This document shows positions 4,149 through 59,610 of a stretch of 64,000 nt of DNA, piece by piece. The translations under genes were made by a program, and so were the position numbers. The notes under the pieces are model-generated. The model was not told the origin of the DNA, made no database searches, and was given only the letters and a program-made list of their open reading frames with translations. This DNA comes from Candidatus Omnitrophota bacterium. Its GTDB lineage: Bacteria; Omnitrophota; Gorgyraeia; S143-82. The DNA is taken from NCBI GenBank assembly GCA_015494465.1, contig WGBD01000001.1, positions 25,030-89,029 of the forward strand, read 5' to 3'. Numbering within the stretch: the stretch's first letter is position 1; each line of letters begins with the position of its first letter.

Positions 4149-4197
4149 CTCCCCCCTTCTTATGCCGGCCTCCCTTAACTAAAAAAATTATAGGGTT

Positions 4198-4235: not shown

Positions 4236-4271
4236 GGTCTCGAAGGGTTTTTTAGGTCTCAAGGCCGAGGC

Positions 4272-24721: not shown

Positions 24722-27700
24722 TTACCTCGGTATCTCTTCTAGGTCCTCTTCCTCGGCAGCTTTTATGTTTGCCTTGGCTCCCGTACCTGCGGGAATTACA
24801 TGGCCTACAATTACGTTCTCCTTAAGGCCGTAGAGACTATCCTTTTTACCAGCCCAAGCGGCCTCTGTCAAGACCCTTGCTGTCTCCTGGAAGCTGGCTG
24901 CGGATATAAAGCTCTCGGTGTGGAGCGCAGCCTTGGTTATCCCGAGGAGCACTGGGGAATAGGTGGCAGGCCTTTTCCCTTGCTTTATCAGTTCACGGTT
25001 AACAGCGAGGAGCTTGTGTTTGTCCACGTAATCACCTGCCAAGAACTCGCTGTCTCCCGGATCCTCTACCTGCACCTTGCGGAGCATCTGGCGGATGATG
25101 ATCTCTATGTGCTTGTCGTTTATCTTTACGCCCTGCAGGCGGTAGACCTCCTGTATCTCGTTGACCAGGTACTCCTGCAAGACCCTATCACCGCAGATCC
25201 TGAGTATGTCCTGCAGGACTACCGGCCCATCGGTCAACTGCTGACCTGCGGTAACGTAATCGCCTTTATACACGGTTGGGTGCTTACCCGGTGGCAGGAC
25301 GTACTCCTTAACCATACCCGAGGGACTGCGGATGATTATCTTCCTCTGTCCCTTCTTGGTCTCGCCGAACTCAACATACCCGTCTATCTCACTGATGATG
25401 GCAGGATCTTTGGGCCTCCTGGCCTCAAACAGCTCAGCCACCCTTGGGAGACCACCGGTGATGTCGCGGGTCTTGATAACCACTTTCGGTTGTTTGGCCA
25501 AGATATCTCCCGCCTCCACCTTCTGGCCCTCATCCACGAGAATGTGGGCACCCCTTGGAATGGGGTATATGCCGACGGTCTCTCCCTTGGCATTGAGTAT
25601 GACTATCTGCGGGTGATAATCCGCTCTGTGCTCCAAAACCACCCGCTCTTTTATACCCGATATCTCGTTCACCTGCTGTTTTATGGTGACGTTCTCTATG
25701 ATGTCTTCGTACTTGACCGTACCGTCCACCTCGCTGAGTATCGGCTGGGTGTAGGGATCCCACTTCACGATGGTCTCGTTGGCCTTGACCTTGCTCTTGT
25801 CGGGATAGAGGATCAGGGCTCCCTGGGGAACCGGATACCTCTCCAGTTCGCGCCCGCTGGGATCATTTATGCTGATGGCCCCGTTCCGGTTGAGGACCAC
25901 ATATCCCTCGGACTTCTTGGCCACCCGCAGGTTATGATAGACGAGCACTCCGTCGCTTTTGGGTTCTATGCTGGACTTCTCCACCACCCTGCTGGCGGTT
26001 CCACCGATGTGGAACGTGCGCATCGTCAACTGGGTGCCCGGCTCACCAATGGACTGGGCAGCAACTATACCTACCGCCTCGCCCACCTCGACAAGTTTCC
26101 CGGTGGCCAGGTTCCTGCCGTAGCACTTTGCGCACACGCCCCTCTGGGACTCACAGGTCAATACACTCCTTATGCGAACGGTCTCTATCCCTGCCTCGCG
26201 GATCTTCCTTGCCTTTTCCTCGGTTATCTCCTCACCCGCCCGAACTATCACCTCATCGGTAATGACGTCCACGATGTTGTCGAGGGCGGTCCTTCCTATT
26301 ATCCTCTCCTCCAGGCTCACGACCTCCTCGTCGCCCTCCATGATCGAACTAACCGCTATTCCGTTGAGAGTCCCACAGTCTTCCTCAACGACGATCACAT
26401 CCTGGGCGACATCCACCAGCCTGCGGGTGAGGTATCCCGCATCCGCGGTCTTCAAGGCGGTATCCGCCAATCCCTTTCTGGCCCCGTGGGCGGAGAGGAA
26501 GTACTCCAAGACATTCAGTCCTTCGCGGAAGTTGGCCACGATCGGGTTCTCAATAATCTCTCCCGAAGGCTTTGCCATCAATCCCCTCATACCTGCCAAC
26601 TGCCTTATCTGTAGTTTGGATCCCCTTGCGCCGGAGTCTGCCATGAGGAAGAGGGGATTGAAGGGATCGAATTCCTTAAACACATAATTGGAGACCTCTT
26701 CGGTGGTGTGGGTCCAGATGTCTATTATCTTGCTGTAGCGCTCACCCTCGGTTATCAATCCCTTGCGGTACTGCTCTTCTATCCTGCGGGCCTCCTTCAT
26801 CGCCTGCTCGATCAACCTCTTCTTTTCTTTGGGGACATTGAGATCGGTTATTGCGATGGAGAGACCCGAATAGGTCGCGTAGTTGAACCCGAGTTCCTTT
26901 ATCTTGTCGAGTGTCTCTACGGTAACTTCGTGCCCCATGCGATCGTATATATCCTTCACCAACTGGGCGAGCTTGCCCTTGTCCATCTGCAGGTTGACGA
27001 ACGGGAAGCCCTTGGGCAGATAGTGATTGAATACCACCCTCCCTACGGTGGTCTCGATTATCTGGGTCTTCTCCTCAGGCACATCCTCCTGCCCGTAATA
27101 GGGCCCCTTTATCCTCACCTTTATCTTGGCGTGGAGATCCACCTCCTTGTCCTGATAGGCGGTCAGGACCTCATCCACGTCGGCGAATACCATCCCTTCG
27201 CCCTTGGCTCCTGGTTTTTCCTTGGTCATGTAGGCGATACCTAAGACCATGTCCTGGCTGGGAGTGGCAATCGCCCGACCGTTTGCCGGGGAGAAGAGGT
27301 TGCGGGCTGCGTTCATCAGTATCCGGGCCTCGGTCTGGGCCTCCAAAGACAACGGCACGTGGACCGCCATCTGGTCTCCGTCGAAGTCTGCATTGAATGC
27401 TGCGCAGACCAGAGGATGGAGCTGTATTGCCTTACCCTCTATGAGTTTGGGCTGGAAGGCCTGTATACTCAAGCGGTGAAGTGTGGGTGCGCGGTTGAGG
27501 AGAACATAGTGGTCCTGGATCACCTCTTCCAGTATGTCCCAGACCTCGGACTTGGTGCGCTCTACGACTTTGCGCGCACCCTTTATGGTGTGGACGACGC
27601 CTCTTTCTTTCAGTTTCCTTATGATGAAGGGCTCAAACAACTCGAGGGCCATCTCCTTGGGCAGACCGCACTCGTTTATCTTCAACTCCGGTCCGACGAC

Positions 27701-28738
27701 TATGACCGAACGGCCGGAATAGTCAACGCGCTTACCCAACAGATTCTGACGGAACCGGCCCTGCTTACCCTTTAGCATATCCGCCAAGGACTTCAGCGGA
27801 CGATTGTTCGCACCGAGAGCGGGCCTCCCGTGCCTGCCGTTGTCAAACAGGGCATCTACCGCCTCCTGAAGCATCCTCTTCTCGTTGCGGATGATTATGT
27901 CCGGGGCGTTCAGAGCAAGGAGTTTCTTCAGACGATTATTGCGGTTTATCACCCTCCTGTACAGGTCGTTAAGGTCGCTGGTTGCGAACCTGCCACCGTC
28001 CAACGGCACCAATGGACGCAGATCCGGGGGTATCACCGGTATCACATCCATAACCAGCCACTCGGGCTGATTACCGGACCTGCGGAAGTCCTCCAGGATG
28101 GACAGGACCTTCAACTGTTTCTTTACATTCTGTCCGCCCTTCTCTATCTGCTTGCGCAGTTCCGCTATCTTCTTCTCCAGATCCAGCTCCAGAAGAAGGT
28201 CCCTAATCGCCTCAGCACCTATCTTGGCGACGAAGGTGCCCTCGCCGTATCTGTCGAGGCAGTCGTAATAACGCTCTATGGTGAGCATCTCCCCTTTGGC
28301 CAAGGGGGTATCGCCCGGATCTATGACGATGAACTCCTCGTAGTAGATGATCTTCTCCAGATTCCGATAAGACAGGCCCAACAGCGCGCTCAACCTGCTG
28401 GGGACGACCTTGAAAAACCATACGTGGACCACCGGTGCAGCCAACTGGATGTGTCCCATCCTCTCCCTGCGCACGGTGGAGCGGGTTATCTCCACCCCGC
28501 ACCGGTCGCAGACCACGCCCTTGTACTTCATCCCCTTGTACTTTCCACAGTTGCACTCCCAGTCCTTCACCGGACCGAATATACGCTCACAGAAGAGGCC
28601 GTCTTTTTCCGGTTTCAGGGTTCGGTAATTAATCGTCTCCGGCTTCTTGACCTCACCGTAAGACCAAGAGCGTATTGCCTCAGGAGAGGCTATCTTGATA
28701 GAGATACTATCAAACCCGCCTTTGGTACTAAATAACAT
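24722..28738 (-). CDS. rpoC: DNA-directed RNA polymerase subunit beta prime
   Basis: 1338 aa; zinc-binding CNCGKYKG...CDRCGVE, catalytic NADFDGDQM. Confidence 0.97.
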
Positions 28739-31700
28739 GTCTCTCCTTCTCCGCTTTTATGTCCAGCCCCAAACCTCTAATCTCCCTCATCAACACATTA
28801 AACGACTCAGGAGTACCACCCTCAAGGTGTGGTTCTCCCTTGACGATGGACTCGTATAGTCTGGTCCTACCCTCCACATCGTCGCTCTTCACGGTCAGCA
28901 TCTCGTGCAGGGTGGCAGCAGCACCGTAACCCTCCAGTGCCCAGACCTCCATCTCTCCAAAACGCTGACCACCGAACTGGGCCTTTCCGCCCAGAGGCTG
29001 TTGGGTTATCAGTGAGTAGGGGCCTATCGCCCGCGCGTGTATCTTATCCGCAACCATGTGTATCAGTTTCATTATGTACATGTATCCGACGGTGACTTCC
29101 TGATCGAACGGCTCTCCGGTGTGACCGTCGTATACAGTGACCTTCCCGTGCTCGGGCAGGCCTGCCTTTCGCATGTATTCCCGTATCTCCTCTTCACTCG
29201 CACCGTCGAACACCGGACAGGCGAAGTGCAGGCCGAGGAGCTTACCCGCCCAACCGAGGTGGGTCTCGAGTATCTGACCCACATTCATACGGGAAGGCAC
29301 TCCCAGCGGGTTCAAGACCACATCCACCGGTGTACCGTCTGCGAGGAACGGCATGTCCTCACGGGGGACTATTGTGGCTATGACGCCTTTATTTCCGTGC
29401 CTACCGGCCAACTTGTCTCCCACTGACAGCTTCCGCTTGGTAGCGACGTAGACTATCACCTTCTTAAGGACGCCCGGCTTGAGGTCGTCGCCGTACTTTA
29501 TCTGGTTTATCTCCAACTGTTTGTCGGTGAGAAGGGCCCGGTAGTCCTCTTCGTAATTAATGAGGACCTCCCTGGCCTCTTCCAAAACATCCTCCTCTAT
29601 CTTCATATCTGCCAGATCCTCCAGGGTAAGGGTCGCAGCCTTTCTGGCGCTCACCCCCAAGAGTTCCTGAAGGGTCTGGTTCTTTTTCTTCTCCAGTTCC
29701 TCTAACTTCTTCTGATAAAGGGCCTCTACCTCCTTTATCCGGGCATTCTCCAGTTGCCGGTCCTTCTTGGTCTTCTTCTTGGGATCCTTCCTCTCAAAGA
29801 CCTCCACCTTCACTACGACGCCCTCTACACCCGGAGGGGCAACCAAGGAGGTGTTCTTTACATCTCCTGCCTTTGTGCCGAATATGGCCCTGAGGAGCCT
29901 CTCCTCGGGAGAAAGCTCCTTCTCGGTCTGAGGTGTTATCTTACCAACCAGTATCGTGCCGGGTTTGACCTCTGCCCCTATGCGGATAATCCCATTTTCG
30001 TCGAGGTCCTTTAGGGCTTCTTCACTTATACCCGGTATGTCCCGGGTAATCTCCTCGTTGCCCAGGCGGGTCTCGCGGGCCTCTATCTCGAATTCGTCTA
30101 TGTGGATTGAGGTGTAGACATCCTCCCGCACGACATTCTCGCTTATCACTATAGCGTCCTCGAAGTTGTATCCCCGCCAGGGCATAAAGGCGACCAGGAG
30201 GTTCTTACCCAGAGCTAGCTCCCCGTTGGCAGTGGCCTGACCGTCGGCGAGGACCTCACCCTTCTTTACCTTCTGACCGGGCTTAACGATGGGCTTCTGG
30301 TTGACACAGGTATTGGTGTTGGAGCGCTCGAACTTCCTTAGGCGGTACTCAACCTCCCCGCTCTTGCCCTTTACGACTATACGGGAGGCATCTACGTAAA
30401 CGACCTCTCCTGCCTCCCGCGCTATCACCACTGCCCCGGAGTCCCGGGCGACCTTTGCCTCCATGCCCGTACCCACTATCGGGGCCTCGGTCTTCATAAG
30501 CGGTACCGCCTGCCTCTGCATGTTGGAACCCATCAACGCACGGTTGGCGTCGTCGTGCTCCAAGAACGGAATGAGAGAGGCAGCAACCGAAACCAACTGC
30601 TTGGGAGATACATCCATATACTCAACCTTCTCCGGCGGGACCTGAGGGAAGTCTCCCTTGTACCTACAGGAGACCAACGGGCCTATCAATCTGCCCTCTT
30701 CGTCTACCGGGGTGTTGGCGTTGGCTATGATCTTCTCCTCTTCCACATCCGCAGTGAGGTACTCTATCTTGCCGGTTAACCTGCCGTTCTCCACCTTTAT
30801 GTACGGCGTCTCCAGAAAGCCCAACTTGTTCACCCGGGCATAGCAGGCCAGAGAGTTTATCAATCCGATGTTCGGACCTTCCGGGGTCTCTATCGGACAT
30901 ATTCGCCCGTAGTGGGAGGGGTGTATGTCCCTCACCTCAAAGCCTGCCCTCTCCCGGGATAGACCTCCCGGACCAAGCGCGCTCAGACGGCGCTTGTGGG
31001 TGGTCTCTGCCAAAGGATTGACCTGATCCATAAATTGGGACAGAGGCGAACGGGCAAAGAAGTCGTGTATCTGGTTGTACAGGAACTTGTAATTTATGAT
31101 GTGCTGGGGCAGAAGTTTTTTCAGGTCCTCTTCCCCGAGGATGGAGATCCTCTCCCTTATGGCCCGCTCCATACGGACCAAGGCTATACGCACCTGTTCC
31201 TGCAACAGCTCACCTGCGGGTTTTACCCTCCGGTTGCCAAGGTGGTCTATGTCGTCGGGTTTGCCTCCCAGATCCGCCTGCAGGGAGAGGAGATACTTCA
31301 CGGTAGCGAGCATTATGTCCGGCGTCAGGACCCGCTTGGAAGGGGAAAGCTTAATACCGAGTTTCCTATGGATGATAAAGGCCCCGACATCGCCCATGTC
31401 GTAATATCTGGGATCGTAGAACATCCTTATAAAGAGGTTCTGGGCGATCTCTAAAGTGGAGGGCTCGGTGGGCCTCATCTTGCGATGAAACTCTAGAAGA
31501 GCGGACTCCATGTCCCTGTTGTGGCTCTTCTTTAGGGTGGGCTCAAAGGCCTTGAAAAGCTCCTCGCTCCCGAGGGCCTTTCTTATGTCCTCATCAGTAG
31601 AGAAGCCGAACATCCTCAGGATGTCCGCTGCGTTGAAGGTGCGCCTCCGGTCTATCTGGACTATAAGGGCATCGGCGTAATCGAAGTGGAAGTCAACCCA

Positions 31701-32195
31701 GGCCCCCCGATGGGGGATGATACGGGCTATGTAAGTGGGCTTCCCGGTGGGATGCTCTTCTTCTATGAAGAAGACACCCGGAGACCTCTGCAACTGGTTA
31801 ACGATCACCCTCTCGTCGCCGTTGATAACATAGGAGGCATTAGGGGTAATGAGTGGGATCTCACCCATATACACATCCTGCTCCCGGGCCTCTTCCCCTA
31901 CGATCAGACGGAAACGGACCCTGAGCGGAGCAGAATAGGTCACCCCCCGCCTCTTGGCCTCCTCTATAGAGTACCTCGGGATACCTATCGAATAGGACAC
32001 ATACTCCAGCCGAATCCCTTTTTCCGGTATCTCTATAGGGAAAATCTCCCGAAATACCGCCTCTAATCCCTGATTCTTCCTCTTACTGGCGGGGACACTT
32101 CTCTGGAGGAAGTTTTCGAAGGAATTTACCTGCAGTTCCAACAGATACGGGATCTTCGCCTGTTCTTTTACCCTACCGAAACTTATCCTTTTCAT
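28728..32195 (-). CDS. rpoB: DNA-directed RNA polymerase subunit beta
   Basis: 1155 aa; conserved beta-subunit blocks; directly upstream of rpoC. Confidence 0.97.
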
Positions 32196-35133: not shown

Positions 35134-35207
35134 CAGGCCTGGAGGGATTCGAACCCCCAACCCGCGGTTTTGGAGACCGCCGCTCTGCCAGTTAGAGCTA
35201 CAGGCCT
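35134..35207 (-). tRNA. trnW: tRNA-Trp (anticodon CCA)
   Basis: Minus-strand 74 nt AGGCCTGTAGCTCTAAC...GGTCTCCAAAACCGCGGGTTGGGGGTTCGAATCCCTCCAGGCCTG; 7-bp acceptor stem, TTCGAAT T-loop, anticodon loop CTCCAAA; no encoded CCA tail. Confidence 0.9.
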
Positions 35208-35361
35208 ACTTCTTCTTGACTTCCCGGTGCAGGGTATGTTTGCGACAGTGCTTGCAATATTTCCTTAATTCCAAGCGCTCCGTGTGGGTGCGCTTATTCT
35301 TGGTATAGTGATAATTCCTATTACCGCACTCGGTGCACTCAAGAGATATCGGCTCTCTCAT
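35206..35361 (-). CDS. rpmG: 50S ribosomal protein L33 (not in ORF track, below 60 aa)
   Basis: Hand translation [51 protein letters not shown] (51 aa), Cys4 zinc-ribbon L33 between the two tRNAs. Confidence 0.85.
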
Positions 35362-35379
35362 CGTTGCCCTTTCTTCTTA

Positions 35380-35452
35380 AGCCCACGACCGGAATCGAAC
35401 CGGTGACCTCATCCTTACCAAGGATGTGCTCTACCGACTGAGCTACGTGGGC
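35380..35452 (-). tRNA. trnT: tRNA-Thr (anticodon GGT)
   Basis: Minus-strand 73 nt GCCCACGTAGCTCAGTCGGTAGAGCACATCCTTGGTAAGGATGAGGTCACCGGTTCGATTCCGGTCGTGGGCT; acceptor GCCCACG/CGTGGGC, anticodon loop TTGGTAA. Confidence 0.9.
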
Positions 35453-43135: not shown

Positions 43136-43900
43136 TTAGGCCCCGTAATAACTAACTTCCTTGGCCTCTCTCACCACAATACTGCCCGGGAAGGCCTTGG
43201 TAAAGACCTTATAGACCTTCACCGCACGGTTGTAGGCAAGCCTTGCCTTCGTGAGCATCTTCTCGACTTCCCTGATCTGCAATATCACGGTCGCGTAGTC
43301 CTTGCCGAATTCCGTAATAGGATAGGACTCCACCAATGCAAGTAGTTTGGACGCACCCGCATCTACCTCGTCGAGGTTGACATTCCGGTAATTGCTGAGT
43401 TTGGTCCGCAACTTGGCAATCTCCTCCAGCAAGGTTCTCTCTATCTGGGCGTGGCGCTCGGCAAGGGATATGGCCTTCTCCAAGAGGTCCACCTTCTGCT
43501 GATAAAAGGCCAAGACCGACGCCCAGGCCTCGTTGACCCTCTCCTCCAAGCGTATCTTTTGGTTCCTGAGATGGATAAAGAACAACTGCCAAGCGGTGAT
43601 GATAAACACCGCCAGGGCAACGATTGAGAATAAGAGCGCCCTATCCATGTCTCTCACCTCCTTCACGACCCACCAGATCCCAACCCCGACCACTAGGGCC
43701 AGCGGGATAAACCGCAAAAAGCTCAACACCGGATAAGCCCCTTTCTTCTCACCCTCTCCGGTGGCCTCTATCAACCTCTCCAGAACCTGCTCCTTCTTTA
43801 CCTGAGAATCCAGTATCGCCTGCTTCAGGGCGGAGGCCTCCTCAGGGGATATACTCCCCTTCATCAGCATCTCGTCTATTCTCCTCATCTCCTCCTGCAT
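43136..43900 (-). CDS. LemA-like protein with N-terminal SHOCT-like motif
   Basis: N-terminus RIDEMLMKGSISPEEASALKQAIL resembles SHOCT; TM segment; C-terminal LemA-like region (...VESYPITEFGKDYATV...ARLAYNRAVKVY...). Confidence 0.6.
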   Translation of the reverse strand: MQEEMRRIDEMLMKGSISPEEASALKQAILDSQVKKEQVLERLIEATGEGEKKGAYPVLSFLRFIPLALVVGVGIWWVVKEVRDMDRALLFSIVALAVFIITAWQLFFIHLRNQKIRLEERVNEAWASVLAFYQQKVDLLEKAISLAERHAQIERTLLEEIAKLRTKLSNYRNVNLDEVDAGASKLLALVESYPITEFGKDYATVILQIREVEKMLTKARLAYNRAVKVYKVFTKAFPGSIVVREAKEVSYYGA

Positions 43901-43910
43901 ATGTCCCCTC

Positions 43911-44270
43911 CTACAACTCCTTTATCAACTTGCTAGCCACTTCCGCCGAGATATTCCCCTTATCCACCTGATTGAGGATGTACCGGATCTCACCAGCCCT
44001 ATGCTCCTCCACCAGATCCCTGAGGCGGGCAATCACCCTGTCCAGACGCAGGCGTACGGTGGGATAACTTACCCCCAACTTCCGGGCCAGATCCTTTAGT
44101 TTCCCATCGCAGAGCAGGAACTCCTCTATCAGGCGCTGGTCCTCGTAGGGCAACCTGCTCAAGGCGCTGAGGGAGAACAGACCCGAGATCTCCGTCCCGC
44201 AGTCCTGACACCCGACCGCGCTCACCCTCACCTTACCACCGCAGAACGGGCACCTGTCCATCAACCTCAT
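43911..44270 (-). CDS. DUF2089-like zinc-ribbon/HTH protein with C-terminal SHOCT-like motif
   Basis: CPFCGGKVRVSAVGCQDCG zinc ribbon, HTH-like LARKLGVSYPTVRLRLDR, C-terminal ILNQVDKGNISAEVASKLIKEL; strong SD GGTGAGGAG and TTGACT-N16-TATATT upstream. Confidence 0.6.
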   Translation of the reverse strand: MRLMDRCPFCGGKVRVSAVGCQDCGTEISGLFSLSALSRLPYEDQRLIEEFLLCDGKLKDLARKLGVSYPTVRLRLDRVIARLRDLVEEHRAGEIRYILNQVDKGNISAEVASKLIKEL

Positions 44271-44460: not shown

Positions 44461-45990
44461 ATGGCAGGTATAGTTAAAGTACACAGTATCGGAATGTTTG
44501 GGGTGGAAACGGTACCGGTTGAGGTGGAGGTGGACCTCTCCAGCGGACTGCCGAGCGTAGCGATCGTCGGACTTCCTGATTCAGCGGTAAGAGAGAGCAA
44601 GGAGCGGATAAGGTCCGCCCTAAAAAACACCTTCAACACCCTACCCAAAGGCAGGTTGACGATAAGCCTTGCCCCTGCAGATGTCAAAAAGGAAGGGGCA
44701 TTCTTTGACCTGCCGATAGCCCTGGCGATCCTTGCCCACCTCGAGGTCCTGCCCCGCCAAACCCTGCAGGAGTTCACCATCATCGGAGAACTGTCTCTGG
44801 ACGGGAAGGTGCGCAGGGTAAACGGGGCCCTGGCCATAGCAGACGAGGTGGCAAGGTCGGCCAAATTGCCTCAGAAACTTATCCTACCCCACGCCAACAG
44901 GTTAGAGGCCAGCTTGATAAGAGATCTTCAATTATACCCGGTCAAGAGTCTCGCGGAGGCAGTCGAGGTAATTCTCGATCCGGAACGACCTCCTTATTCC
45001 CGGCAGGGAGAACCAGACATAGAAAACGAATCGCTTAACGAAGACCTGGACTTCGCGGAGGTGAAGGGGCAGGAGACCGCCAAGCGGGCATTGGAGATAT
45101 CCGCTGCCGGTGGACACAATGTCCTTATGGTCGGCCCCCCGGGAACGGGCAAGACCATGCTCGCCCGCAGGCTCCCGACCATCCTTCCACCCCTTACCGA
45201 GGCCCAGATAGTGGAGACGACCAAGATATACAGTATAAAAGGGCTCCTCGGGGAAGACGGCATCGTCCGCAGGCCACCCTTCCGAGCCCCTCACCACAGC
45301 AGTAGCGCCCCTGCAGTAGTAGGCGGAGGCAATCCCCCGATGCCCGGTGAGATAAGCCTCGCCCACAACGGGGTGCTGTTTCTAGACGAGCTGCCGGAAT
45401 TCCGCAGGGATGTCATAGAGGCCCTGAGGGAGCCCATGGAAGAGGGATACATCCGCATCTCTCGGGCAGGCACTACCACCAGGTTTCCCGCCAGATTCAT
45501 AATGATTGCAGCGATGAACCCCTGCCCCTGCGGTTACCTCAACAGCACCCGTCGGACCTGCGTGTGCGAAGAGTACCAGATACAGAGGTACCGCAGAAAG
45601 GTCTCTGGACCCATTCTGGACAGGATAGACCTACACATAGAGGTCAACGACATAGAACCGGAGAAACTACAAGCCAGTGAATCCTCGGTGGATTCCGCCT
45701 CTATGAGGGAACGGGTCATAAAGGCACGGGAACGCCAGAGGTGGCGCTTTCGTGATACCCCGATAGAGACCAACTCCCAGATGAGCAACAGACTCATAAG
45801 ACTCCACTGCAGACTGGACGATAAGGCCCAGGAGATGCTCAAACAGGCAGTCCTGCGCCTGGGACTGTCCACCCGGGCCTACACCCGCACCCTCAAGGTG
45901 GCAAGGACCATAGCGGACCTCGAGAACAGTGAGCAGATAAAGACCACGCACATACTCGAGGCCCTCACCTACCGGTTTTCTTGGCAATGA
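44461..45990 (+). CDS. comM: Mg-chelatase-like AAA+ ATPase YifB/ComM
   Basis: 509 aa; N-terminal Lon-protease-like domain, Walker A GPPGTGKTMLA, C-terminal Mg-chelatase domain. Confidence 0.9.
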   Translation: MAGIVKVHSIGMFGVETVPVEVEVDLSSGLPSVAIVGLPDSAVRESKERIRSALKNTFNTLPKGRLTISLAPADVKKEGAFFDLPIALAILAHLEVLPRQTLQEFTIIGELSLDGKVRRVNGALAIADEVARSAKLPQKLILPHANRLEASLIRDLQLYPVKSLAEAVEVILDPERPPYSRQGEPDIENESLNEDLDFAEVKGQETAKRALEISAAGGHNVLMVGPPGTGKTMLARRLPTILPPLTEAQIVETTKIYSIKGLLGEDGIVRRPPFRAPHHSSSAPAVVGGGNPPMPGEISLAHNGVLFLDELPEFRRDVIEALREPMEEGYIRISRAGTTTRFPARFIMIAAMNPCPCGYLNSTRRTCVCEEYQIQRYRRKVSGPILDRIDLHIEVNDIEPEKLQASESSVDSASMRERVIKARERQRWRFRDTPIETNSQMSNRLIRLHCRLDDKAQEMLKQAVLRLGLSTRAYTRTLKVARTIADLENSEQIKTTHILEALTYRFSWQ

Positions 45991-47318
45991 AGCAGAAGCT
46001 GACCCAGACCACATCCATCCGACAGGAGATACACCTCACTCCCCAGATGCAGCAGTTTCTCAAGGTCATACAAATGCCTGCATTGGAACTGTACCAGTTT
46101 ATACAAACCGAACTGGAGAACAATCCCCTCCTAGAGGCGGAGATGGACTACGAGGTGCTACAGGACCAACCCACGCCGCCAGAAGACATAACTGAGACCC
46201 TGCCCGATCCCGACACCCTCTTCACCCAAGACCTCTACAATCCCGTAAACGAGCAATACGACTACGGAGACAGCGACCACCTTCGTCCTGAACCAACCTG
46301 TAGGGAGAACTGGCGGAGTCAGGCAGTAAAAGACCTCAGGTTAACACTGGATGAGAGAGAGGCCAAGATCGCAGAGTACATAATATTCAACCTCGACGAG
46401 GAGGGCTTTCTCAAACTCACCGACGAAGAGATCGCCCAGGCTCTGGGGGTTGAGGAAGAGGAGGTCCAATCGACACTTGCCCACCTGAGACAGATACTGC
46501 CTCCCGGTCTCACCGCCCGCACCGTGAAGGAGTGCCTCCTCCTGCAGATAGAACGACGGGAAGGCAGGGAAAGTCCGACCTACCGCATAGTAAACGAGGC
46601 CTTCTCCGACCTCATACGCAGAAGATACAGGAAGATCGCCCGAGAATTAAAGCTGCCCCTAAAACAGGTCAACCTCGTCGCCCAGAACCTTTCTCGATAC
46701 CGCACCCGTCCATTGGTCGCCAAGGACATCCCCGCCTGCGCCTACCCCGAATACGAGATAAAGGTAGTGGACGGACAGATAGTGATAGAGAGGATATCCA
46801 CCCTGCCCGTCCCAAGGCTTCGTTTAAATCAAAGGTACATAGAGACCCTGCGCAATTCCAAGGACAGATCTGCCCGCAAGTTCCTCTCCCATTACCTGCA
46901 AAGGGCAAAGGCAGTGATACAGGCCACCCGAGAGCGGGAGGAGAAACTGCTGTCTCTCCTGCAATTCCTGGCCCAGCGCCAACGGGAATTCGTAGAGAGT
47001 GGACCTGCTTACCTAAAGCCCCTCACCATGAAACAGGCCTCGCGTACCACCGGCCTGTCGGAATCAACCATCTCCCGACTGGCTAATAACAAGTTCGTGC
47101 AGGTCCCGTGGGGATGCATCAGGATAAAGGACTTCTTCCTCAATCCCCTCTCCTACACCAACGACACACCCAGAGATATGATATTGGGAATCATCAGGGA
47201 GATCATAGAATCCTCGGACAAACGCTTATCCGACGAGAAGATACGGGAACTCCTCAAGGAACGCGGTATACAACTATCCCGCAGGACAGTGAACAAATAT
47301 AGGCACATGCTGGGATGA
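45981..47318 (+). CDS. rpoN: RNA polymerase sigma-54 factor
   Basis: 445 aa; region I, core-binding region, C-terminal RpoN box RRTVNKYR; start overlaps comM stop by 10 nt. Confidence 0.92.
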   Translation: MAMKQKLTQTTSIRQEIHLTPQMQQFLKVIQMPALELYQFIQTELENNPLLEAEMDYEVLQDQPTPPEDITETLPDPDTLFTQDLYNPVNEQYDYGDSDHLRPEPTCRENWRSQAVKDLRLTLDEREAKIAEYIIFNLDEEGFLKLTDEEIAQALGVEEEEVQSTLAHLRQILPPGLTARTVKECLLLQIERREGRESPTYRIVNEAFSDLIRRRYRKIARELKLPLKQVNLVAQNLSRYRTRPLVAKDIPACAYPEYEIKVVDGQIVIERISTLPVPRLRLNQRYIETLRNSKDRSARKFLSHYLQRAKAVIQATREREEKLLSLLQFLAQRQREFVESGPAYLKPLTMKQASRTTGLSESTISRLANNKFVQVPWGCIRIKDFFLNPLSYTNDTPRDMILGIIREIIESSDKRLSDEKIRELLKERGIQLSRRTVNKYRHMLG

Positions 47319-47322
47319 GGGC

Positions 47323-48507
47323 TCAAATCACAAACTCCTCCAGCGATTCTATTCGGATGGTTTCCATTCTATTTTCAAGATCTCGGGAGGAACTGAACCT
47401 AACCTTGAGGTAATTCCTCGCAGTACCTATCCAGACGCCTCTTTGTTCCTCTTCTTCGAACAGGACCTCCAATTCCCTGCCTACGAACCGCTCTGCATAC
47501 TCCCGGGCATAGATTTTGGCCCGATCCAGGACCTCCGCCACCCGTCTCTTCTTCTCCCTTCCGCTGACCTGTCCATCGAAGCCCTCTGCAGGTGTACCCG
47601 GGCGGGGACTGAATGGAAAGGCATGCACCCGCATAGGCCTTATCTCGTCCAATAAAGAGAGGGTCTCCTTAAACTGCACCTCTCCTTCACCGGGGAAGCC
47701 AACCATTATGTCCGTGCTTATCGCTATATCTGGGACCTCCTTTCGTATCCGTTCCACCAACCGCAGGATGAAGTCCCTGTCGTAAGGCCTGCCCATCCGA
47801 CTCAGGATCTCCGAAGATCCGCTCTGGAAAGGAATGTGCAGGTGCTCACAGAGTAGGCCCTCCTTGCAGGCCTGAACGATCTCATCCGAGACGAAAAACG
47901 GCTCTATAGAACTCAACCTCACCCGGGCAATCCCCGCCTTTTCCCGGGCAAACCTCGCCAAGGAGACCAGATCCTGTCCGCCCCAGCCCATGCATATCCC
48001 GGTAAGGACTACCTCCTGCACACCTAACTCACCAAGTCGCAAGAGGTCCTGCTCTATTGCCCGCGGGTCTCTCAATCTGGCCTCTCCCCTCAACTTTGGT
48101 ATGTAACAATAGGTGCACCCCATACTGCATCCGTCCTGGACCTTCACGAAGGCCCGGGTGTGCCCGTAGAAGGAAGTGATACCCCCCGGCAACTGGAAGA
48201 ATCTCTCCTTCTCCACTTGCGGGACAAGGCGGACCTCCCCAACGCTCTTTTTCTGGAGCAGGAGTGCGGTGGCACTGCAGGCGGTAACGAGTACCTCCTT
48301 ACCCTCCCTAAGGGCCTTTTTCGCAGTCTGCTCCGCCTTGGACTGGGCCCGGGATGTGACCGCGCAACCGTTTATTATCACCGTACGGGCAGAGGCCCAA
48401 TCGTCGGTAAGAAGGATCCCCTGGCGCACCAAGGCCTCCCTCATCAACTGGCCCTCGTACTGATTGACCTTGCATCCAAAGTTAACTATCAATACCGGTC
48501 CCGTCAT
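47323..48507 (-). CDS. MiaB-family radical-SAM tRNA/ribosomal methylthiotransferase (MtaB/RimO-like)
   Basis: N-terminal MTTase domain FGCKVNQYE, radical SAM CSMGCTYC, C-terminal TRAM; ORF track start 48537, ATG at 48507 fits family N-terminus. Confidence 0.85.
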   Translation of the reverse strand: MTGPVLIVNFGCKVNQYEGQLMREALVRQGILLTDDWASARTVIINGCAVTSRAQSKAEQTAKKALREGKEVLVTACSATALLLQKKSVGEVRLVPQVEKERFFQLPGGITSFYGHTRAFVKVQDGCSMGCTYCYIPKLRGEARLRDPRAIEQDLLRLGELGVQEVVLTGICMGWGGQDLVSLARFAREKAGIARVRLSSIEPFFVSDEIVQACKEGLLCEHLHIPFQSGSSEILSRMGRPYDRDFILRLVERIRKEVPDIAISTDIMVGFPGEGEVQFKETLSLLDEIRPMRVHAFPFSPRPGTPAEGFDGQVSGREKKRRVAEVLDRAKIYAREYAERFVGRELEVLFEEEEQRGVWIGTARNYLKVRFSSSRDLENRMETIRIESLEEFVI

Positions 48508-48814
48508 CCAGATCGTCCTCCCACTCCAGACCTGCAAGCGGATTCTGAATCACGGCATCGTAATCGTAAAGGCAATAAATGGCCTCCCTGCTAACCTTGT
48601 AGTGAGTGTAATATCGGATGGCTCCGACCATCACCACCAAGGTACAGGCCAGCACCACCCCCCATCCCCCTCGCAGTAACAGGCCTCGCCATCCGGGGAC
48701 TACCCTGCGCCTTTCCTCCTCCAAGGCCCTTTTGAGGATGACGCCCCACAGCCCCTTTGGCGGGGATTCCTTGAGACCCTTCATCCCCTCGTACAACCTG
48801 TCTATCCTGTCCAT
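48482..48814 (-). CDS. hypothetical single-TM protein, putative anti-sigma factor
   Basis: 110 aa with one TM segment; start overlaps ECF sigma stop by 13 nt; no HxxxCxxC zinc motif, so assignment is positional only. Confidence 0.4.
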   Translation of the reverse strand: MDRIDRLYEGMKGLKESPPKGLWGVILKRALEEERRRVVPGWRGLLLRGGWGVVLACTLVVMVGAIRYYTHYKVSREAIYCLYDYDAVIQNPLAGLEWEDDLDDGTGIDS

Positions 48815-49341
48815 AACCCCTCCTGCTTCAAGAGGATCCGTCCCTGTTTCCTAAACTCTTCCCTGGCCCGATTGAGGCGACTCTTTACCGTGTTTACACC
48901 CATCCCCAGGGCCCTGCCTATCTCCTCGTAAGATAGCCCTTCCACCTCCCGCAAGACCAATATCAACCGCGTCTCCGGCGACAATCGCCTGAGTATCTCC
49001 CTCACCAATTCCTTGTCTTCCCACCTCTCACCAGGGCGATCGTCTGCCTTCAAGGTCTCTTCCTTTATCCCGCAATCCTTTCTCCTGCGAAGGTAATTGA
49101 GGGCGGTATTCACCGTCGCCCTGTATATGTAGGTCTTCAAACTGGAACGGAACATAAACCCTTTAACCTTCCGATAAAGGCGCAAGAAGACCTCCTGCGC
49201 CAGATCCTCTGCCTCGGAAGGGTTGCCCAGGACATTGTAGGCAACGCTGTACACGAAAGAGCCGTACCTGTGGTAGACCTCCTCAAAGGCCCGCAGGTCC
49301 CCTTTACGCAGTCGCTCTATCAGGTCCCTGTCCTCAACCAT
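48802..49341 (-). CDS. ECF-type RNA polymerase sigma-70 factor
   Basis: 179 aa; region 2 (...YRYGSFVYSVAYNVLGNPSEAEDLAQEVFLRLYRK...) and region 4 HTH (...LSYEEIGRALGMGVNTVKSRL...). Confidence 0.9.
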   Translation of the reverse strand: MVEDRDLIERLRKGDLRAFEEVYHRYGSFVYSVAYNVLGNPSEAEDLAQEVFLRLYRKVKGFMFRSSLKTYIYRATVNTALNYLRRRKDCGIKEETLKADDRPGERWEDKELVREILRRLSPETRLILVLREVEGLSYEEIGRALGMGVNTVKSRLNRAREEFRKQGRILLKQEGLWTG

Positions 49342-49357
49342 AATCCCGTCTCAATAC

Positions 49358-49386
49358 ATTAGACACGCAAAGGCGCACTTAAGTTC
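49358..49386 (-). promoter_or_regulatory. candidate ECF-sigma-dependent (autoregulatory) promoter upstream of ECF sigma gene
   Basis: Minus strand reads GGAACTT-N16-GTCTAA, about 16 nt upstream of the sigma ATG, matching the sigE/ECF consensus (-35 GGAACTT, -10 GTCTAA). Confidence 0.55.
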
Positions 49387-49404
49387 CCCAGAGATTCACC
49401 GATA

Positions 49405-49434
49405 GACAAAAAGAGGGGGATCAGCTCCCCCTTT
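49405..49434 (-). terminator. intrinsic terminator downstream of nitroreductase gene
   Basis: Minus-strand RNA AGGGGGA-gcuga-UCCCCCU followed by CUUUUUG; about 30 nt after nitroreductase stop. Confidence 0.6.
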
Positions 49435-49465: not shown

Positions 49466-49978
49466 CTACTCTAACCTATCCCAGTGCAGTACCTCGTCAA
49501 GGGAGCGCTTGTTCCTCGGAAGATCCCAAAGGGAAGGATCCGCCGGCCTCCCCACCGCTATCACGCTCACCAACCTGTATGCCTCGGGATCCGCCCCGCA
49601 GAACCTCACGACCTCCGGGGCGTAGTCCTTCTTGTCCCCTGCAATCCAGCACGAGCCATATCCAAGGGCCGTAGCGGAAAGGAGGATGTTCTCTGTGGCA
49701 GAGGAACCGTCCTCCAGATACTGCTTGGTCGGTCGGCACAACACGATTATCGCGCACCCGCAATCCTTGAGGAACGGCCCGTTCCTTCCCACGATCCGGG
49801 TCAGCTCCTCCAACCGCGCCTTGTCGGTTATCACTACGAACTCCCATGGCTGTTCGTTGCGTGCGGTGGGGGCAAGCCTGCCCGCATCCACCATCAACTC
49901 TATGTCTTCCCTTTTTACCTCTGACCCGTCGTACTTGCGGATGCTCCTGCGCCTGCGCACCACATCAAAGAAATCCAT
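49466..49978 (-). CDS. nitroreductase family protein
   Basis: 170 aa; RRSIRKY N-terminal motif and nitroreductase fold. Confidence 0.8.
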   Translation of the reverse strand: MDFFDVVRRRRSIRKYDGSEVKREDIELMVDAGRLAPTARNEQPWEFVVITDKARLEELTRIVGRNGPFLKDCGCAIIVLCRPTKQYLEDGSSATENILLSATALGYGSCWIAGDKKDYAPEVVRFCGADPEAYRLVSVIAVGRPADPSLWDLPRNKRSLDEVLHWDRLE

Positions 49979-50801: not shown

Positions 50802-51655
50802 CCCCGCTCCCCGGCCCTGAAGACCACATTGTCTATCAGCCTGGCCCGGCCGAACCAGACCGCCATCGCTAAGACATACCTCTCCCCGGGAGCTAACTTC
50901 CTCACCGGTGCCATGTCCTCCCAGCGCACCAGCTCCACATAATCGACCTTTCCCCCCGCCATTTCCACATCCCTAGCCAGTTCCTTCAACACCCTGCCGA
51001 CCTGCCTGCCTGCGAGGAGTTCCCGTTTGCCCTTCAACAGGCTCTGGTATATGATGGGAGCCTTTCTCCTCTCCTCTTCAGATAAATACACATTGCGAGA
51101 GCTCATCGCCAGACCGTCAGGCTCCCTGACTATCGGCATTATCCTTATCCTTATCGGGAAGTTGAGGTCCGCAACCATCTGTTCTATGATCCTGGCCTGC
51201 TGGACATCCTTCTGACCGAAGTAGGCCACATCCGGCATCACTATGTTGAACAGTTTGGCCACCACCGTACAGACCCCCCGAAAGTGTCCGGGCCGGGATG
51301 CCCCACAGAGGTGCTTATCCAATTCCTTTACCTCTACATAGGTGAGAAAGGGTTGAGGATACATTTCCTCTACGGAAGGTGCGAACACGAGATCTACTCC
51401 CGCCTCCTTACACAGTTTAAGGTCCCGACGCAGATCCCGGGGATACCTGCGGTAGTCTTCTCTGGGACCAAACTGTATGGGATTCACGAAGATGCTGACC
51501 ACGACGAAGTCGTTGTACTTGCGGGCCTGGCGGATAAGTGAGAGGTGCCCCTCGTGGAGGTAGCCCATGGTGGGAACGAAGCCCACCCTCTGACCTCGCC
51601 TCTTGGCCGAATCAACTGCCTTGCGCACCGTGGTTATCTTCTTGGCTACCTTCAT
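50798..51655 (-). CDS. panC: pantoate--beta-alanine ligase
   Basis: 285 aa; GFVPTMGYLHEGHLSL HIGH-type motif. Confidence 0.92.
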   Translation of the reverse strand: MKVAKKITTVRKAVDSAKRRGQRVGFVPTMGYLHEGHLSLIRQARKYNDFVVVSIFVNPIQFGPREDYRRYPRDLRRDLKLCKEAGVDLVFAPSVEEMYPQPFLTYVEVKELDKHLCGASRPGHFRGVCTVVAKLFNIVMPDVAYFGQKDVQQARIIEQMVADLNFPIRIRIMPIVREPDGLAMSSRNVYLSEEERRKAPIIYQSLLKGKRELLAGRQVGRVLKELARDVEMAGGKVDYVELVRWEDMAPVRKLAPGERYVLAMAVWFGRARLIDNVVFRAGERG

Positions 51656-53742
51656 GACCCACTATTATACGACAGTTCCAGCGCCTCCTCCACTATCCGT
51701 GGCTCTATCCCCTCCATACACACCTTTACCTCCCGCGGACAGTCCTTTTTATAACAAGGGGCACAGGTATCCAGATAGACTACCCGAAATCGAGCCTTGA
51801 TCCTTCCCGGCGGAAGGGGGACATGCCTTTGGGGCGAGGTAGGCCCGAAGTAGACCACCGTCGGCACCTTGAGGGCAAAGCCGAGGTGCATAAGGGCACT
51901 GTCCGGGGTTATCAGCAGAGAAAGGCTTGCTACTATCCGCAACAGTTCCTTAACCGAGGACCTTCCCACGAGGTCCACCAAGGAAATCCCCTTAGAGGAG
52001 AGCTCCCGAACCAACTCCTTCGCCACTTCTCTATCCCTATCCACCCCCAACAGGACGAAGGTCGCCTTCAGCTTTGCGGAAAGGTCCTCTATCACCCGCA
52101 GGATCTGATCCTTATCAAGAGACTTACTTTTCCAGCGGGATGACATCACGATGCCAATCAATCTATCTTTCATCTCTCCGCTTACCAGATTGGCGAGGAG
52201 TTTGAGCCTGACGGTCTCCTTCTCCTCGTCGGAGACTTCAAATAGGGGAGACTCCGGAGGGATGGGCTGGATCCCGGCGGACCTCAGGAATCTCACCTGC
52301 TCAAGAAGGGGGAAGTCCTGAACATACTCTATCGGATCCGTGTAGAGAAACCTCCCCAACTTCCGGGCATAGCCAAGTGTCCGGTAGGCCCCGGACCGGC
52401 TGGCCAGGAACTGCGTCTTCACCTTCCCCTGCAGGTCAAAGACCACATCCGGACCCCAGCGTCTTAGCCATCTTCCATCCACTCCCCGGCAATCCTTTGC
52501 CCGCTCCCCCCAGAGATCGCAGGTGTACTCAGAACCCACCACCACAAGGTCAGAACCCGGAAATTGCCTCCGTATAGACTCAAACGAATAGGTCCCCAGC
52601 ACGACATCCCCAAAAGAGGAGGTCTTGATAATGCCTATCGAATAGGTCCCGTACACCTCCTCGTAGACCTTAAGCGTGCGCTCGCACATCTCCTCAAGGC
52701 TATAACGCTGACTCTCCCTAAACCCCCTCTCCGCCAAGGCACTGGCCAGGTCCCGCCTGCGAATCAGCAATTCCATCTTCTCTGCCCAGTCGCCCGGATC
52801 GCCGGGCCGGGCCAGAAGTCCGGTCTGAGAATGGGCAATCAACTCGTTGAGCGCGGGAAGGTCCGAGGCGATAACCGGACGGCCTACTGCCCAAGCCTCC
52901 AGGACTGCCCTCCCGAAGGACTCCGGATACACCGAGGGCACCAGCACCGCATAGGCCTTGGCCAGCAATCCCGCCACATCCTTAACCGGCCCCAGGAACC
53001 TGACCGACGATCCCAAGGAAAAGCGGGTAATCAGGGAACGCAGGCGGGAATAGTACTTCTCCTTCCGCCCCACATCCCCGGCTACCCACAATTGGGCACT
53101 GGGGAAGTTCCTGACCACCTTGGCAAAGGCCTCGAGGGCAACATGGATCCCCTTGTTCGGGGTTATACGGCTTACGATGAGGAATATCGGCTCATCCACT
53201 ACCCTCGCCTTGGGGAATTCCTCCCGTTCAACCCCGCGGGGGATAACCACTATCTTGGCCTCCGGGACCCCAAACACCGAATGCATGTGTTCCGCTATCA
53301 ATTGGGAGGGAGTTATCACCCGCCTGCCCATCCCCATCACCCAGGAGATGGGACCGCGGGAATACAGGCCGTGGCAGGTGGTAACGAAGTTCACCACCTT
53401 GGGGTACCTCTCTCGGGCAAACCTCCGGCGGTTGACCCAGCGCACCGCATGATACCCTATCCAGCCCGGCACCCGGGAGCGGGCATGGACTATGTCCACG
53501 CCCAATTCCTCTATCAAGTGCGCCAAGCGAGGGACCTGGGCGAGCATAACCAGAGGATTCTTGGAGTGCACCGGCATACGGATGTGCCTTGCCCCCATCC
53601 TCTCAAGGCTGGACTGCCTCCATCCCCCGGAAGAGACGACTATCGCGGTGTGCCCCTGAGATATCAGGTAGGAGCAGACCTCAACAGTGCCCCGTTCCAC
53701 CCCCCCGCTGTCGAGTTTAGGCAGGATCTGGAGTACCTTCAT
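51652..53742 (-). CDS. bifunctional glycosyltransferase: N-terminal GT4 fused to C-terminal GT9 (heptosyltransferase-like)
   Basis: N-half GT4 ...PSVYPESFGRAVLEAWAVGRPVIASD...; C-half GT9 ...IKTSSFGDVVL...LLITPDSALMHLGFALKVPTVVYFGPTSP; single 696 aa ORF. Confidence 0.75.
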   Translation of the reverse strand: MKVLQILPKLDSGGVERGTVEVCSYLISQGHTAIVVSSGGWRQSSLERMGARHIRMPVHSKNPLVMLAQVPRLAHLIEELGVDIVHARSRVPGWIGYHAVRWVNRRRFARERYPKVVNFVTTCHGLYSRGPISWVMGMGRRVITPSQLIAEHMHSVFGVPEAKIVVIPRGVEREEFPKARVVDEPIFLIVSRITPNKGIHVALEAFAKVVRNFPSAQLWVAGDVGRKEKYYSRLRSLITRFSLGSSVRFLGPVKDVAGLLAKAYAVLVPSVYPESFGRAVLEAWAVGRPVIASDLPALNELIAHSQTGLLARPGDPGDWAEKMELLIRRRDLASALAERGFRESQRYSLEEMCERTLKVYEEVYGTYSIGIIKTSSFGDVVLGTYSFESIRRQFPGSDLVVVGSEYTCDLWGERAKDCRGVDGRWLRRWGPDVVFDLQGKVKTQFLASRSGAYRTLGYARKLGRFLYTDPIEYVQDFPLLEQVRFLRSAGIQPIPPESPLFEVSDEEKETVRLKLLANLVSGEMKDRLIGIVMSSRWKSKSLDKDQILRVIEDLSAKLKATFVLLGVDRDREVAKELVRELSSKGISLVDLVGRSSVKELLRIVASLSLLITPDSALMHLGFALKVPTVVYFGPTSPQRHVPLPPGRIKARFRVVYLDTCAPCYKKDCPREVKVCMEGIEPRIVEEALELSYNSGS

Positions 53743-58749: not shown

Positions 58750-59610
58750 CTACACTCGCTTATTACCCCAGAGTGCCTCCAAAAGCGTAATAAGCGTATT
58801 ACGGAGGTTTTTACGCTCTACAATCATATCAATTAATCCATGCTCCTGCAAGAATTCCGAACGCTGGAATCCCTCTGGGAGATCTTGGTTTATGGTCTTC
58901 TTTATAACCCGCGGACCGGCAAAACCTATCAACGCCCCGGGCTCGGCGATCAACACATCTCCCAGAGAGGCAAAACTGGCAAGGACCCCTGCCATGGTGG
59001 GATTGGTCAACACCGATATGAATATCCCACCCATAGACTGGTACCTGCCTATCACCGCCGAGGTCTTGGCCATCTGCATCAAGGAGAACATCCCCTCGTA
59101 CATCCTCGCCCCCCCTCCAGAGGCAGAGATGATGATAAGGGGAAGCATCTCCTCTATGGCCACCTCGGTTACTCTCGCCACCCGCTCGCCCAACACCGAA
59201 CCCATCGACCCCATAATGAACCGGGAATCGGTAACCGCAACTGCAACCCGCCTGCCGTTCAATCTGGCGGTGCCGGCCATTATGGCCTCGTCCATTCCCG
59301 TTTTAGTTCGAGCCTCTTCCAGTTTCTCTTTGTAGGTCTTGGGACCGGAGAAGTTCAAGGGATCGGCAGTACGGAGCTCGGTGAACATCTCCTGAAAAGA
59401 TCCCTCGTCAAAGGTCATCTTTATCCTCTCTTCAGCCGAGATGGAAAAGTGATGTCCGCAATTAGGACAAACCCAGAGGTTCTCCTGCAACTGCTCGTTA
59501 AGGATCATCTTGTAGCAGGCATCACAGCGGGTAAAGATATCCGAGGGGACGTCCTTTTTCTTGGTCTTCTTGAACAACAGAAAGCGTTTTCGCGGTTTAA
59601 ATACGCTCAT
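58750..59610 (-). CDS. accD: acetyl-CoA carboxylase carboxyltransferase subunit beta
   Basis: N-terminal zinc ribbon CDACYKM...CPNCGHH followed by carboxyltransferase domain. Confidence 0.92.

Follow-up and report, generated by a model that had tools for sequence, protein, structure and literature searches.

A probable self-contained ECF sigma factor module with a small membrane partner and a methylthiotransferase gene as its likely passenger in a Candidatus Omnitrophota bacterium

We have analysed 64,000 nucleotides (nt) of contig WGBD01000001.1 from a Candidatus Omnitrophota bacterium, a stretch that we call the window. Its minus strand carries three consecutive genes that, as read from the sequence, encode an extracytoplasmic function (ECF) sigma factor, a membrane protein of 110 amino acids (aa) and a methylthiotransferase of the MiaB/RimO family, preceded by a terminator and a promoter. 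Our analysis suggests a self-contained ECF sigma module under positive autoregulation, with a minimal membrane partner and with the methylthiotransferase gene, mtaB, as a passenger; we put the probability of this reading at roughly 0.7. The sigma gene would be transcribed from its own GGAAC-N18-GTCTAA promoter and translated together with the small single-pass membrane protein, whose two-helix cytoplasmic N-terminus of about 42 residues would tether the sigma factor at the membrane, either as a class II (CnrY-type) anti-sigma factor does or as an N-terminally truncated zinc-finger anti-sigma factor might. A signal from outside the cytoplasm, received at the short acidic outer segment, would free the sigma factor, most likely through proteolysis, and the freed sigma factor would increase transcription of its own operon. 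mtaB would then be a housekeeping gene turned operon passenger in a compact genome, not the dedicated output of the module. Among these steps we infer the binding of sigma by the 110-aa protein, the signal and the co-transcription of mtaB.

The elements of the locus and their window coordinates are as follows.

49359..49387, minus strand: ECF-type promoter of the sigma gene; -35 element GGAAC(TT) at 49387-49381, 16-nt spacer, -10 element GTCTAA at 49364-49359
48802..49341, minus strand: ECF (group IV) sigma factor, 179 aa, assigned from Pfam and TIGR02937
48482..48814, minus strand: 110-aa single-pass membrane protein, candidate minimal anti-sigma factor, assigned from position, gene calls and conservation
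48516..48522, minus strand: Shine-Dalgarno sequence GGGAGGA of mtaB, lying in the 3'-terminal part of the 110-aa open reading frame (ORF), 8 nt before the ATG at 48507
47323..48507, minus strand: radical S-adenosylmethionine methylthiotransferase of the MiaB/RimO family, 394 aa, MtaB closest, assigned from TIGR00089 and Pfam
49404..49432, minus strand: intrinsic terminator of the upstream operon; stem-loop AGGGGGAGCTGATCCCCCT at 49432-49414, then the tail CTTTTTGTCT
49466-49978, minus strand: nitroreductase, last gene of the upstream operon

The promoter and the sigma factor

The promoter is a well supported element of the unit. The exact pattern GGAACTT-N16-GTCTAA occurs only once in the window, where shuffled sequences lead one to expect 0.01 matches, and its -10 element lies 17 nt from the sigma ATG. 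Orthologous loci were taken from public assemblies (we refer to individual loci by L numbers; L003 belongs to GCA_054035575.1), and the promoter comparison covers each ortholog sigma gene whose 5' flank is present. Upstream of the sigma genes of L005, L045 and L003 we find GGAAC-N18-GTCTAA with a spacer that differs from that of the window (promoter region in the window, GGAACttaagtgcgcctttgcgtGTCTAA; in L005, GGAACcctaccgtggggttgggtGTCTAA; in L003, GGAACaatttctttccttaaggcGTCTAA). The TT that follows GGAAC is not conserved among the relatives. In the orthologs the -10 element ends 13-18 nt 5' of the start codon, a distance so short that the leader would be short as well, with room only for a ribosome-binding site. 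The same signal extends to more distant sigma genes with an FMFRSxLKT signature in common, which we call cousins: G(G/A)AAC or AAC-N18-GTCTAA stands upstream of the sigma genes of L019, L020, L025/26/29, L032 and L046/47, at roughly 35-49% identity. Altogether at least nine loci besides the window keep the two blocks at constant spacing, with different spacers and flanks, over a range of roughly 30-87% in protein identity. Blocks that are kept in register while the spacer between them diverges constitute a phylogenetic footprint rather than a chance match. Judged by this footprint, GGAAC-N18-GTCTAA is the autoregulatory ECF promoter of the sigma gene, and on this point the first-pass annotation of the locus was right.

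Could the motif nonetheless be a chance occurrence and no promoter at all? It does exist as a single copy in the window, and relaxed versions of it are no commoner than chance. However, only 0.01 exact matches are expected, and no fewer than nine further loci have these blocks, with unchanged spacing, ahead of their sigma genes, so that we regard a chance origin as very improbable. The lack of further copies has a different consequence, which concerns the regulon. An exact motif scan of the window finds no second promoter copy; allowing two mismatches gives 9 sites against 15.8 expected, and the pattern GAAC-N17-20-GTCT gives 9 against 7. A site with one mismatch at 5895-5923 was rejected, as it lies within a coding region. 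With no second site, and with relaxed patterns near or below chance, no regulon can be stated. Recurrence had been proposed as a check on the motif: it is not repeated within the window, and it does recur upstream of sigma genes in relatives.

GGAAC-type promoter motifs are widespread among ECF groups. An ECF sigma gene characteristically has its own promoter with AAC in the -35 element and a -10 element of the GTC/CGT type, and the window motif agrees with this pattern. The sigE-type likeness that had been pointed out is borne out in so far as the motif resembles the E. coli sigmaE promoter cores, GGAACTT and TCAAA (PMC1312014), a motif type that is not restricted to that group.

The protein encoded behind this promoter is, by its domains, an ECF sigma factor. 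Sigma70_r2 matches residues 23-88 (4e-19) and Sigma70_r4_2 residues 111-161 (1e-16), TIGR02937 scores 106.7 bits against a cut-off of 42.9, and with regions 2 and 4 only, in 179 aa where ~180-200 aa is usual, the protein falls within the ECF group (group IV) of sigma-70 factors. Its ratio of nonsynonymous to synonymous substitution rates (dN/dS) against L005 is 0.13. All named equivalog models (SigW, RpoE, SigE, SigM and others) score far below their cut-offs: the RpoE model TIGR02939 gives 95.8 bits where 236.15 are required, and the SigW models TIGR02948 and NF007223 give 100.5 against 243.1 and 106.5 against 209. The nearest solved structures, AlgU, SigW, M. tuberculosis SigE and E. coli sigmaE, are about equally distant (1e-21 to 1e-24). 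The resemblance to the classical pairs, E. coli sigmaE (RpoE) with RseA and B. subtilis SigW with RsiW, thus lies in the arrangement, an autoregulated promoter of the GGAAC...TC(A/T)AA type followed by the sigma gene and then by a gene for a membrane anti-sigma factor, a candidate one in the window, and in the similar sequence distance of the sigmaE, AlgU and SigW structures from the window sigma. It does not extend to the equivalog scores or to the downstream ORF, in which we find no RseA_N or RsiW-type domain, and no rseB or rseC genes are present there.

Closer relatives point elsewhere. The nearest non-orthologous sigma genes, in L019, L020, L046/47 and L048, have 40-49% identity to that of the window, and these four cousin loci share one order: the sigma gene, a gene for a single-pass anti-sigma factor of 140-167 aa with the HxxxCxxC (zf-HC2) motif, and a gene for a periplasmic Metal_resist/LTXXQ protein. 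The anti-sigma factors of L019, L020 and L048 match zf-HC2, and that of L046 carries the HxxxCxxC motif. Most of these sigma genes also share with that of the window the FMFRSxLKT signature and the AAC-N18-GTCTAA promoter. Group ECF281, which derives from the original group ECF20, has just this architecture, with the sigma gene, a zinc-finger anti-sigma gene at +1 and a heavy-metal-resistance/LTXXQ protein (PF13801) at +2 (Casas-Pastor et al. 2021, PMC7826278). Since the nearest non-orthologous homologs of the window sigma show the ECF281 architecture, the sigma subgroup appears to be related to ECF281, group membership being judged here from the architecture of these neighbours only. The window agrees with ECF281 in that its partner is also a single-pass membrane protein, encoded at +1 and overlapping the sigma stop. 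It differs in two respects: the partner is without the first ~40 residues, which bear the HxxxCxxC zinc motif, and the +2 gene is mtaB (secA in L003) instead of a Metal_resist/LTXXQ gene. A tblastn search finds no homolog of Metal_resist/LTXXQ anywhere in the 64 kb. The same kind of search with a cousin zinc-finger anti-sigma gave a weak match at 59365-59523, which is the zinc ribbon of an AccD-like carboxyltransferase and not a second anti-sigma factor.

The small membrane partner

The 110-aa ORF shares its first 13 nt with the 3' end of the sigma gene. In L005, L045, L002 and L003/L004 the same position holds an ORF of 110 or 100 aa, so that in five loci from three lineages the partner always lies directly 3' of the sigma gene and overlaps it. 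Sigma identity to the window is 87% in L005 and L045 and 52% in L003 and L004; in L002 the partner has 74% identity. Against L005 or L002 the 110-aa ORF has a dN/dS of 0.27 at a dS of about 0.53, which indicates purifying selection; in the same comparison the sigma gene has 0.13, mtaB 0.10 and the nitroreductase gene 0.05. The protein contains a single hydrophobic segment, at about residues 45-66 (the 19-residue Kyte-Doolittle maximum is 2.05, at 45-63), and is predicted to consist of ~42 cytoplasmic residues, the transmembrane segment and ~45 extracytoplasmic residues ending in the acidic EWEDDLDD. The L003 partner has 100 aa and shares with it LKxxPPKxxW, a hydrophobic segment led by GWG and an acidic tail, and the most conserved stretch of the 110-aa protein is the cytoplasmic LKxxPPKxxW helix region. 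From its conservation and selection pattern, then, the 110-aa ORF is a genuine conserved gene for a single-pass membrane protein.

Whether this protein is an anti-sigma factor is a separate question. It has no match in Pfam, NCBIfam or the PDB (the last up to an expect value (E) of 10), and neither a zf-HC2 match nor an HxxxCxxC motif is found in the ORF. Relatives were sought by a word-indexed search with the single sequence and with a profile, by an exhaustive HMMER search over 1.84 billion representative proteins, and by a scan of GTDB genomes. Only three sequence clusters emerge, both in 5.8 billion proteins and in the 1.84 billion representatives, and none in the GTDB genomes. An AlphaFold2 model places helices at residues 2-12, 20-37 and 43-90 and leaves the acidic end disordered, at a predicted local distance difference test (pLDDT) score of 57 and from an alignment of only three sequences. 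Class I anti-sigma factors have a four-helix cytoplasmic domain of ~100 residues, at least 50, of the kind that zf-HC2, RskA or RseA-type models detect; the ~42 residues and two predicted helices found here fall short of that. Class II, with CnrY as an example, is defined by a cytoplasmic part of two helices joined to one membrane helix, and it is for this reason that we read the 110-aa protein as probably class II-like. Of the two cytoplasmic helices of CnrY, the first lies against sigma4 and the second against sigma2 (PMC7406223). The likeness consists in the very small size of a single-pass protein and in the two short helices that the low-confidence model places before the transmembrane segment of the window partner. 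There are differences too: no sequence similarity connects CnrY with the 110-aa protein (the PDB search to E = 10 found none), and CnrY, which acts together with the sensor CnrX, has its gene at -2, whereas the gene of the window partner is at +1 and we see no sensor to go with it.

Descent from the cousins' kind of anti-sigma factor may also be considered. MAFFT aligns the 110-aa protein to the C-terminal two-thirds of the cousin zinc-finger anti-sigma factors, from a point directly behind the zinc motif onwards. In the MAFFT and the hhalign alignments alike, PPKGLWGVILKRAL of the partner falls on the PxxxxWxxIK segment that precedes the transmembrane helix of the cousins. The partner may derive from a zinc-finger anti-sigma factor by loss of the zinc-binding helices. 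The two hhalign comparisons, which agree on this segment, give E = 0.16-0.23 and a probability below 1%, values at which homology to the zinc-finger anti-sigma factors is not demonstrated, and we treat the alignment as a lead and not as evidence.

The alternative to an anti-sigma role is that the 110-aa protein is a small membrane cargo, co-expressed with a sigma factor that is controlled in some other way, through transcription alone or by an unlinked regulator. This would explain why the protein has no recognisable anti-sigma domain and a cytoplasmic part of only ~42 residues, why the profile comparison with the cousins is not significant, and why it forms an orphan family of three clusters. 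A mere cargo would not, however, be expected to hold the exact +1 overlapping slot that a zinc-finger anti-sigma gene holds in all four cousin loci, or to stay with the sigma gene when both flanks change, as they do between the window and L003. Moreover, class II anti-sigma factors with two helices and of about this size exist, CnrY being one (PMC7406223), and conservation is highest in the cytoplasmic LKxxPPKxxW helix region. We consider the cargo explanation unlikely, though it deserves to be kept in mind, and hold that the 110-aa protein is probably a candidate minimal anti-sigma factor of a class II-like kind. What had been described as a single-pass candidate anti-sigma overlapping the sigma stop therefore survives as a real gene (dN/dS 0.27) with one transmembrane segment and a 13-nt overlap; the functional label comes from position and architecture, no anti-sigma domain being detected.

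The methylthiotransferase gene: co-transcribed, but coupled?

The third protein contains the Pfam domains UPF0004 and Radical_SAM, scores 310.7 bits with the MiaB/RimO family model TIGR00089 (cut-off 251), and has Cys12, Cys48, Cys77 and C127xxxC131xxC134 in its sequence, as the family does; its relatives in the PDB are MiaB and RimO. By these marks it is a member of the MiaB/RimO family. The MtaB model TIGR01579 is the best specific model at 321.4 bits (MiaB gives 216 and RimO 183), yet this lies below its cut-off of 357.05, which makes the protein MtaB-like with the substrate deduced; its activity is likely that of MtaB, the formation of 2-methylthio-N6-threonylcarbamoyladenosine at tRNA position 37 (ms2t6A37).

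The start of mtaB is embedded in the partner gene. Its ATG, which is also the gene callers' choice, overlaps the 110-aa ORF by 26 nt, with GGGAGGA 8 nt upstream, in agreement with the earlier description of a MiaB-family gene whose start is overlapped by the 3' end of the 110-aa ORF. About 60 nt around this junction (within 48470-48570) are nearly invariant in the window, L005 and L002, where the genes overall are 81-83% identical; such constancy fits a dual constraint from overlapping reading frames and a ribosome-binding site. Given the overlapping start and the strong ribosome-binding site, mtaB is probably co-transcribed with, and translationally coupled to, the partner gene. We find no terminator between the sigma gene, the 110-aa ORF and mtaB, and a consensus scan finds no sigma70-type promoter internal to the unit that could serve mtaB. 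In a relaxed scan TTTACG-N17-CAGAAT (~48570) matches a sigma70-like pattern at 8 of 12 positions; it is not conserved in L005 or L002 and was judged to be chance. Co-transcription of mtaB with the sigma unit is plausible on these grounds, and so is the three-gene transcript that had been proposed, with overlapping genes, no terminator and no conserved sigma70-like promoter between them.

At its other end mtaB faces rpoN. The two genes are convergent (rpoN, plus strand, ends at 47318; mtaB, minus strand, ends at 47323), with stops 4 nt apart, too close for terminators to fit in between. On the plus strand, mtaB contains a terminator-like hairpin at 47355-47369. In L002 (1854-2584) a nucleotidyltransferase/HEPN pair, which resembles a toxin-antitoxin pair, is inserted exactly between rpoN and mtaB.

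A shared transcript need not mean a shared purpose. How far, then, does the link reach? We see the order sigma, partner, mtaB nowhere but in the window and a single group of near-identical contigs (L005, L045, L002), two species-level lineages in all. In L003 a 121-nt gap (6836-6956) comes after the pair; it holds a strong extended -10 element of the TGnTATAAT type, TGATATAAT, which would give secA, the next gene, a promoter of its own, and the upstream flank is different as well. Of 13 distant mtaB loci none has an ECF sigma gene directly upstream, and one has dnaJ there; an MtaB scan of GTDB returns only Clostridia matches, at 30-37% identity. We found no literature that links ECF sigma factors to MtaB. 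The conserved unit is therefore most likely, as comparison of the loci suggests, a two-gene cassette of sigma and partner, with mtaB at its 3' end only in this clade. In the L003 lineage the sigma gene is itself preceded (4143-6000) by genes for a PP-loop ATPase (PF01171, of the TilS/TtcA-type tRNA-modification family) and an ARMT1-like protein, and the presence of a tRNA-modification gene near the sigma gene there may be coincidence.

Against this background we can weigh the possibility that the ECF sigma factor deliberately drives mtaB, so that envelope stress (or heat, or metal) raises ms2t6A37 on the tRNAs for ANN codons and retunes translation. Nothing separates mtaB from the gene before it, neither an intergenic region nor a terminator, and no conserved sigma70-like promoter precedes it; the overlap with its ribosome-binding site is nearly invariant between two species-level lineages, all of which would suit such a design. 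But the link is absent from the next ortholog, from the four cousin loci and from the 13 distant mtaB loci, and no connection of this kind turned up in the literature. Overlaps, furthermore, are the rule in the window (yifB with rpoN, and panC with the aspartate dehydrogenase gene, in a tightly packed genome), so that an overlap alone is weak evidence of coupling and carries little weight. Deliberate control of mtaB seems to us improbable. More improbable still, by a little, is its strictest form, in which, in this uncultured and probably thermophilic lineage, mtaB is the sole other gene in an operon of an ECF sigma factor and a minimal anti-sigma factor and extracytoplasmic stress directly raises ms2t6A37 on ANN-decoding tRNAs. 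Functional coupling of sigma and mtaB finds little support, and chance in a compact genome is the likeliest source of the linkage. The first-pass annotation had linked envelope-stress control to thiomethylation; as a designed pairing this is not supported, the mtaB adjacency being confined to the clade of the window, with secA in the 52% ortholog, Metal_resist/LTXXQ genes in the four cousin loci and 0 of 13 distant loci showing it.

Nor is the association as foreign to known operons as had been thought when it was called not a classical pairing, for mtaB in a stress operon has a precedent: in B. subtilis mtaB (yqeV) is the last gene of the heat-inducible dnaK operon (PMC2952846). There, as here, a housekeeping ms2t6A methylthiotransferase gene stands at the 3' end of a stress-regulated operon. 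The dnaK operon differs in its regulator, HrcA with the controlling inverted repeat of chaperone expression (CIRCE) and sigmaA instead of an ECF sigma factor, and in having a constitutive internal promoter upstream of dnaJ, the like of which is not recognised in the window unit.

Several points weigh against the passenger module that we prefer. The partner matches no known domain or structure, its comparison with the zinc-finger anti-sigma factors is not significant, and its structural model is of low confidence. The promoter has no second copy in the window from which a regulon could be defined. The synteny sample is small, with two species-level lineages that have mtaB in the unit and one that does not. 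Finally, mtaB is without a visible promoter of its own; if it truly depended on the ECF promoter, a housekeeping enzyme would be expressed in an unusual way, and a real regulatory link would gain in likelihood. Together with the near-invariant junction between mtaB and the partner gene, it is this that lends sigma-controlled tRNA modification a small probability.

Genomic setting and significance

The order of elements given above, from terminator and promoter motif through the sigma gene and the 110-aa ORF to the methylthiotransferase gene, is the one first described, with every element in its place, and independent gene calls on a public contig of identical sequence give the same three genes with the same starts. 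The terminator that precedes the unit is a hairpin of 7 pairs (5 of them G-C) with a 5-nt loop, 3' of the nitroreductase gene, and L005 and L045 have an equivalent one, GGGGGAAAGCTTCCCCC with TTTCTTTG after it. The promoter was said to abut the U tract of this terminator; the two are indeed close, but the adjacency is only approximate, with ~17 nt between the T tract and the -35 element.

The operon that ends at this terminator has the order glycosyltransferase, panC, aspartate dehydrogenase, nitroreductase. It is headed by a fusion of 696 aa (51652-53742) that joins a GT4 glycosyltransferase to a domain of glycosyltransferase family 9 (heptosyltransferase). The heptosyltransferase domain in this fused protein suggests lipopolysaccharide-core synthesis and an outer membrane in the host. 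The window has a GC content of 54%, and the combined fraction of isoleucine, valine, tyrosine, tryptophan, arginine, glutamate and leucine (IVYWREL) in 14 of its long proteins is 0.46. By the Zeldovich relation, a rough guide, such a value points to a (hyper)thermophile, and this composition suggests a thermophilic host lineage. Scans with the 110-aa protein and with MtaB find no close relative among GTDB r232 species representatives.

Other features of the window lie at some distance from the unit. The TTG start of the sigma-54 gene (rpoN, 45981-47318) lies inside the end of a Mg-chelatase-like YifB/ComM gene (44461-45990), with an overlap of 10 nt, and L002 keeps the pair. At 43136-44270 a DUF2089 zinc-ribbon/helix-turn-helix protein of 119 aa adjoins a 254-aa ORF; L002 has this pair too, and its 254-aa neighbour matches the Pfam family LemA. 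ORFs of rpoB/rpoC size, 1155 and 1338 aa, occupy 24722-32195, and two tRNA genes lie at 35134-35452.

What does the locus contribute? As a routine module of an ECF sigma factor and a membrane partner it is chiefly of annotation value, and it illustrates how little overlapping genes in a compact genome say about functional coupling. It would be of interest for stress-dependent tRNA modification only if mtaB depends on this sigma factor. More generally, the locus supplies G(G/A)AAC-N18-GTCTAA as a clean promoter motif, footprinted across relatives, of a sigma subgroup that looks related to ECF281. Its 110-aa protein, with ~42 cytoplasmic residues, may rank among the smallest anti-sigma factors and, if binding proves true, would help to define the minimal unit that binds a sigma factor.

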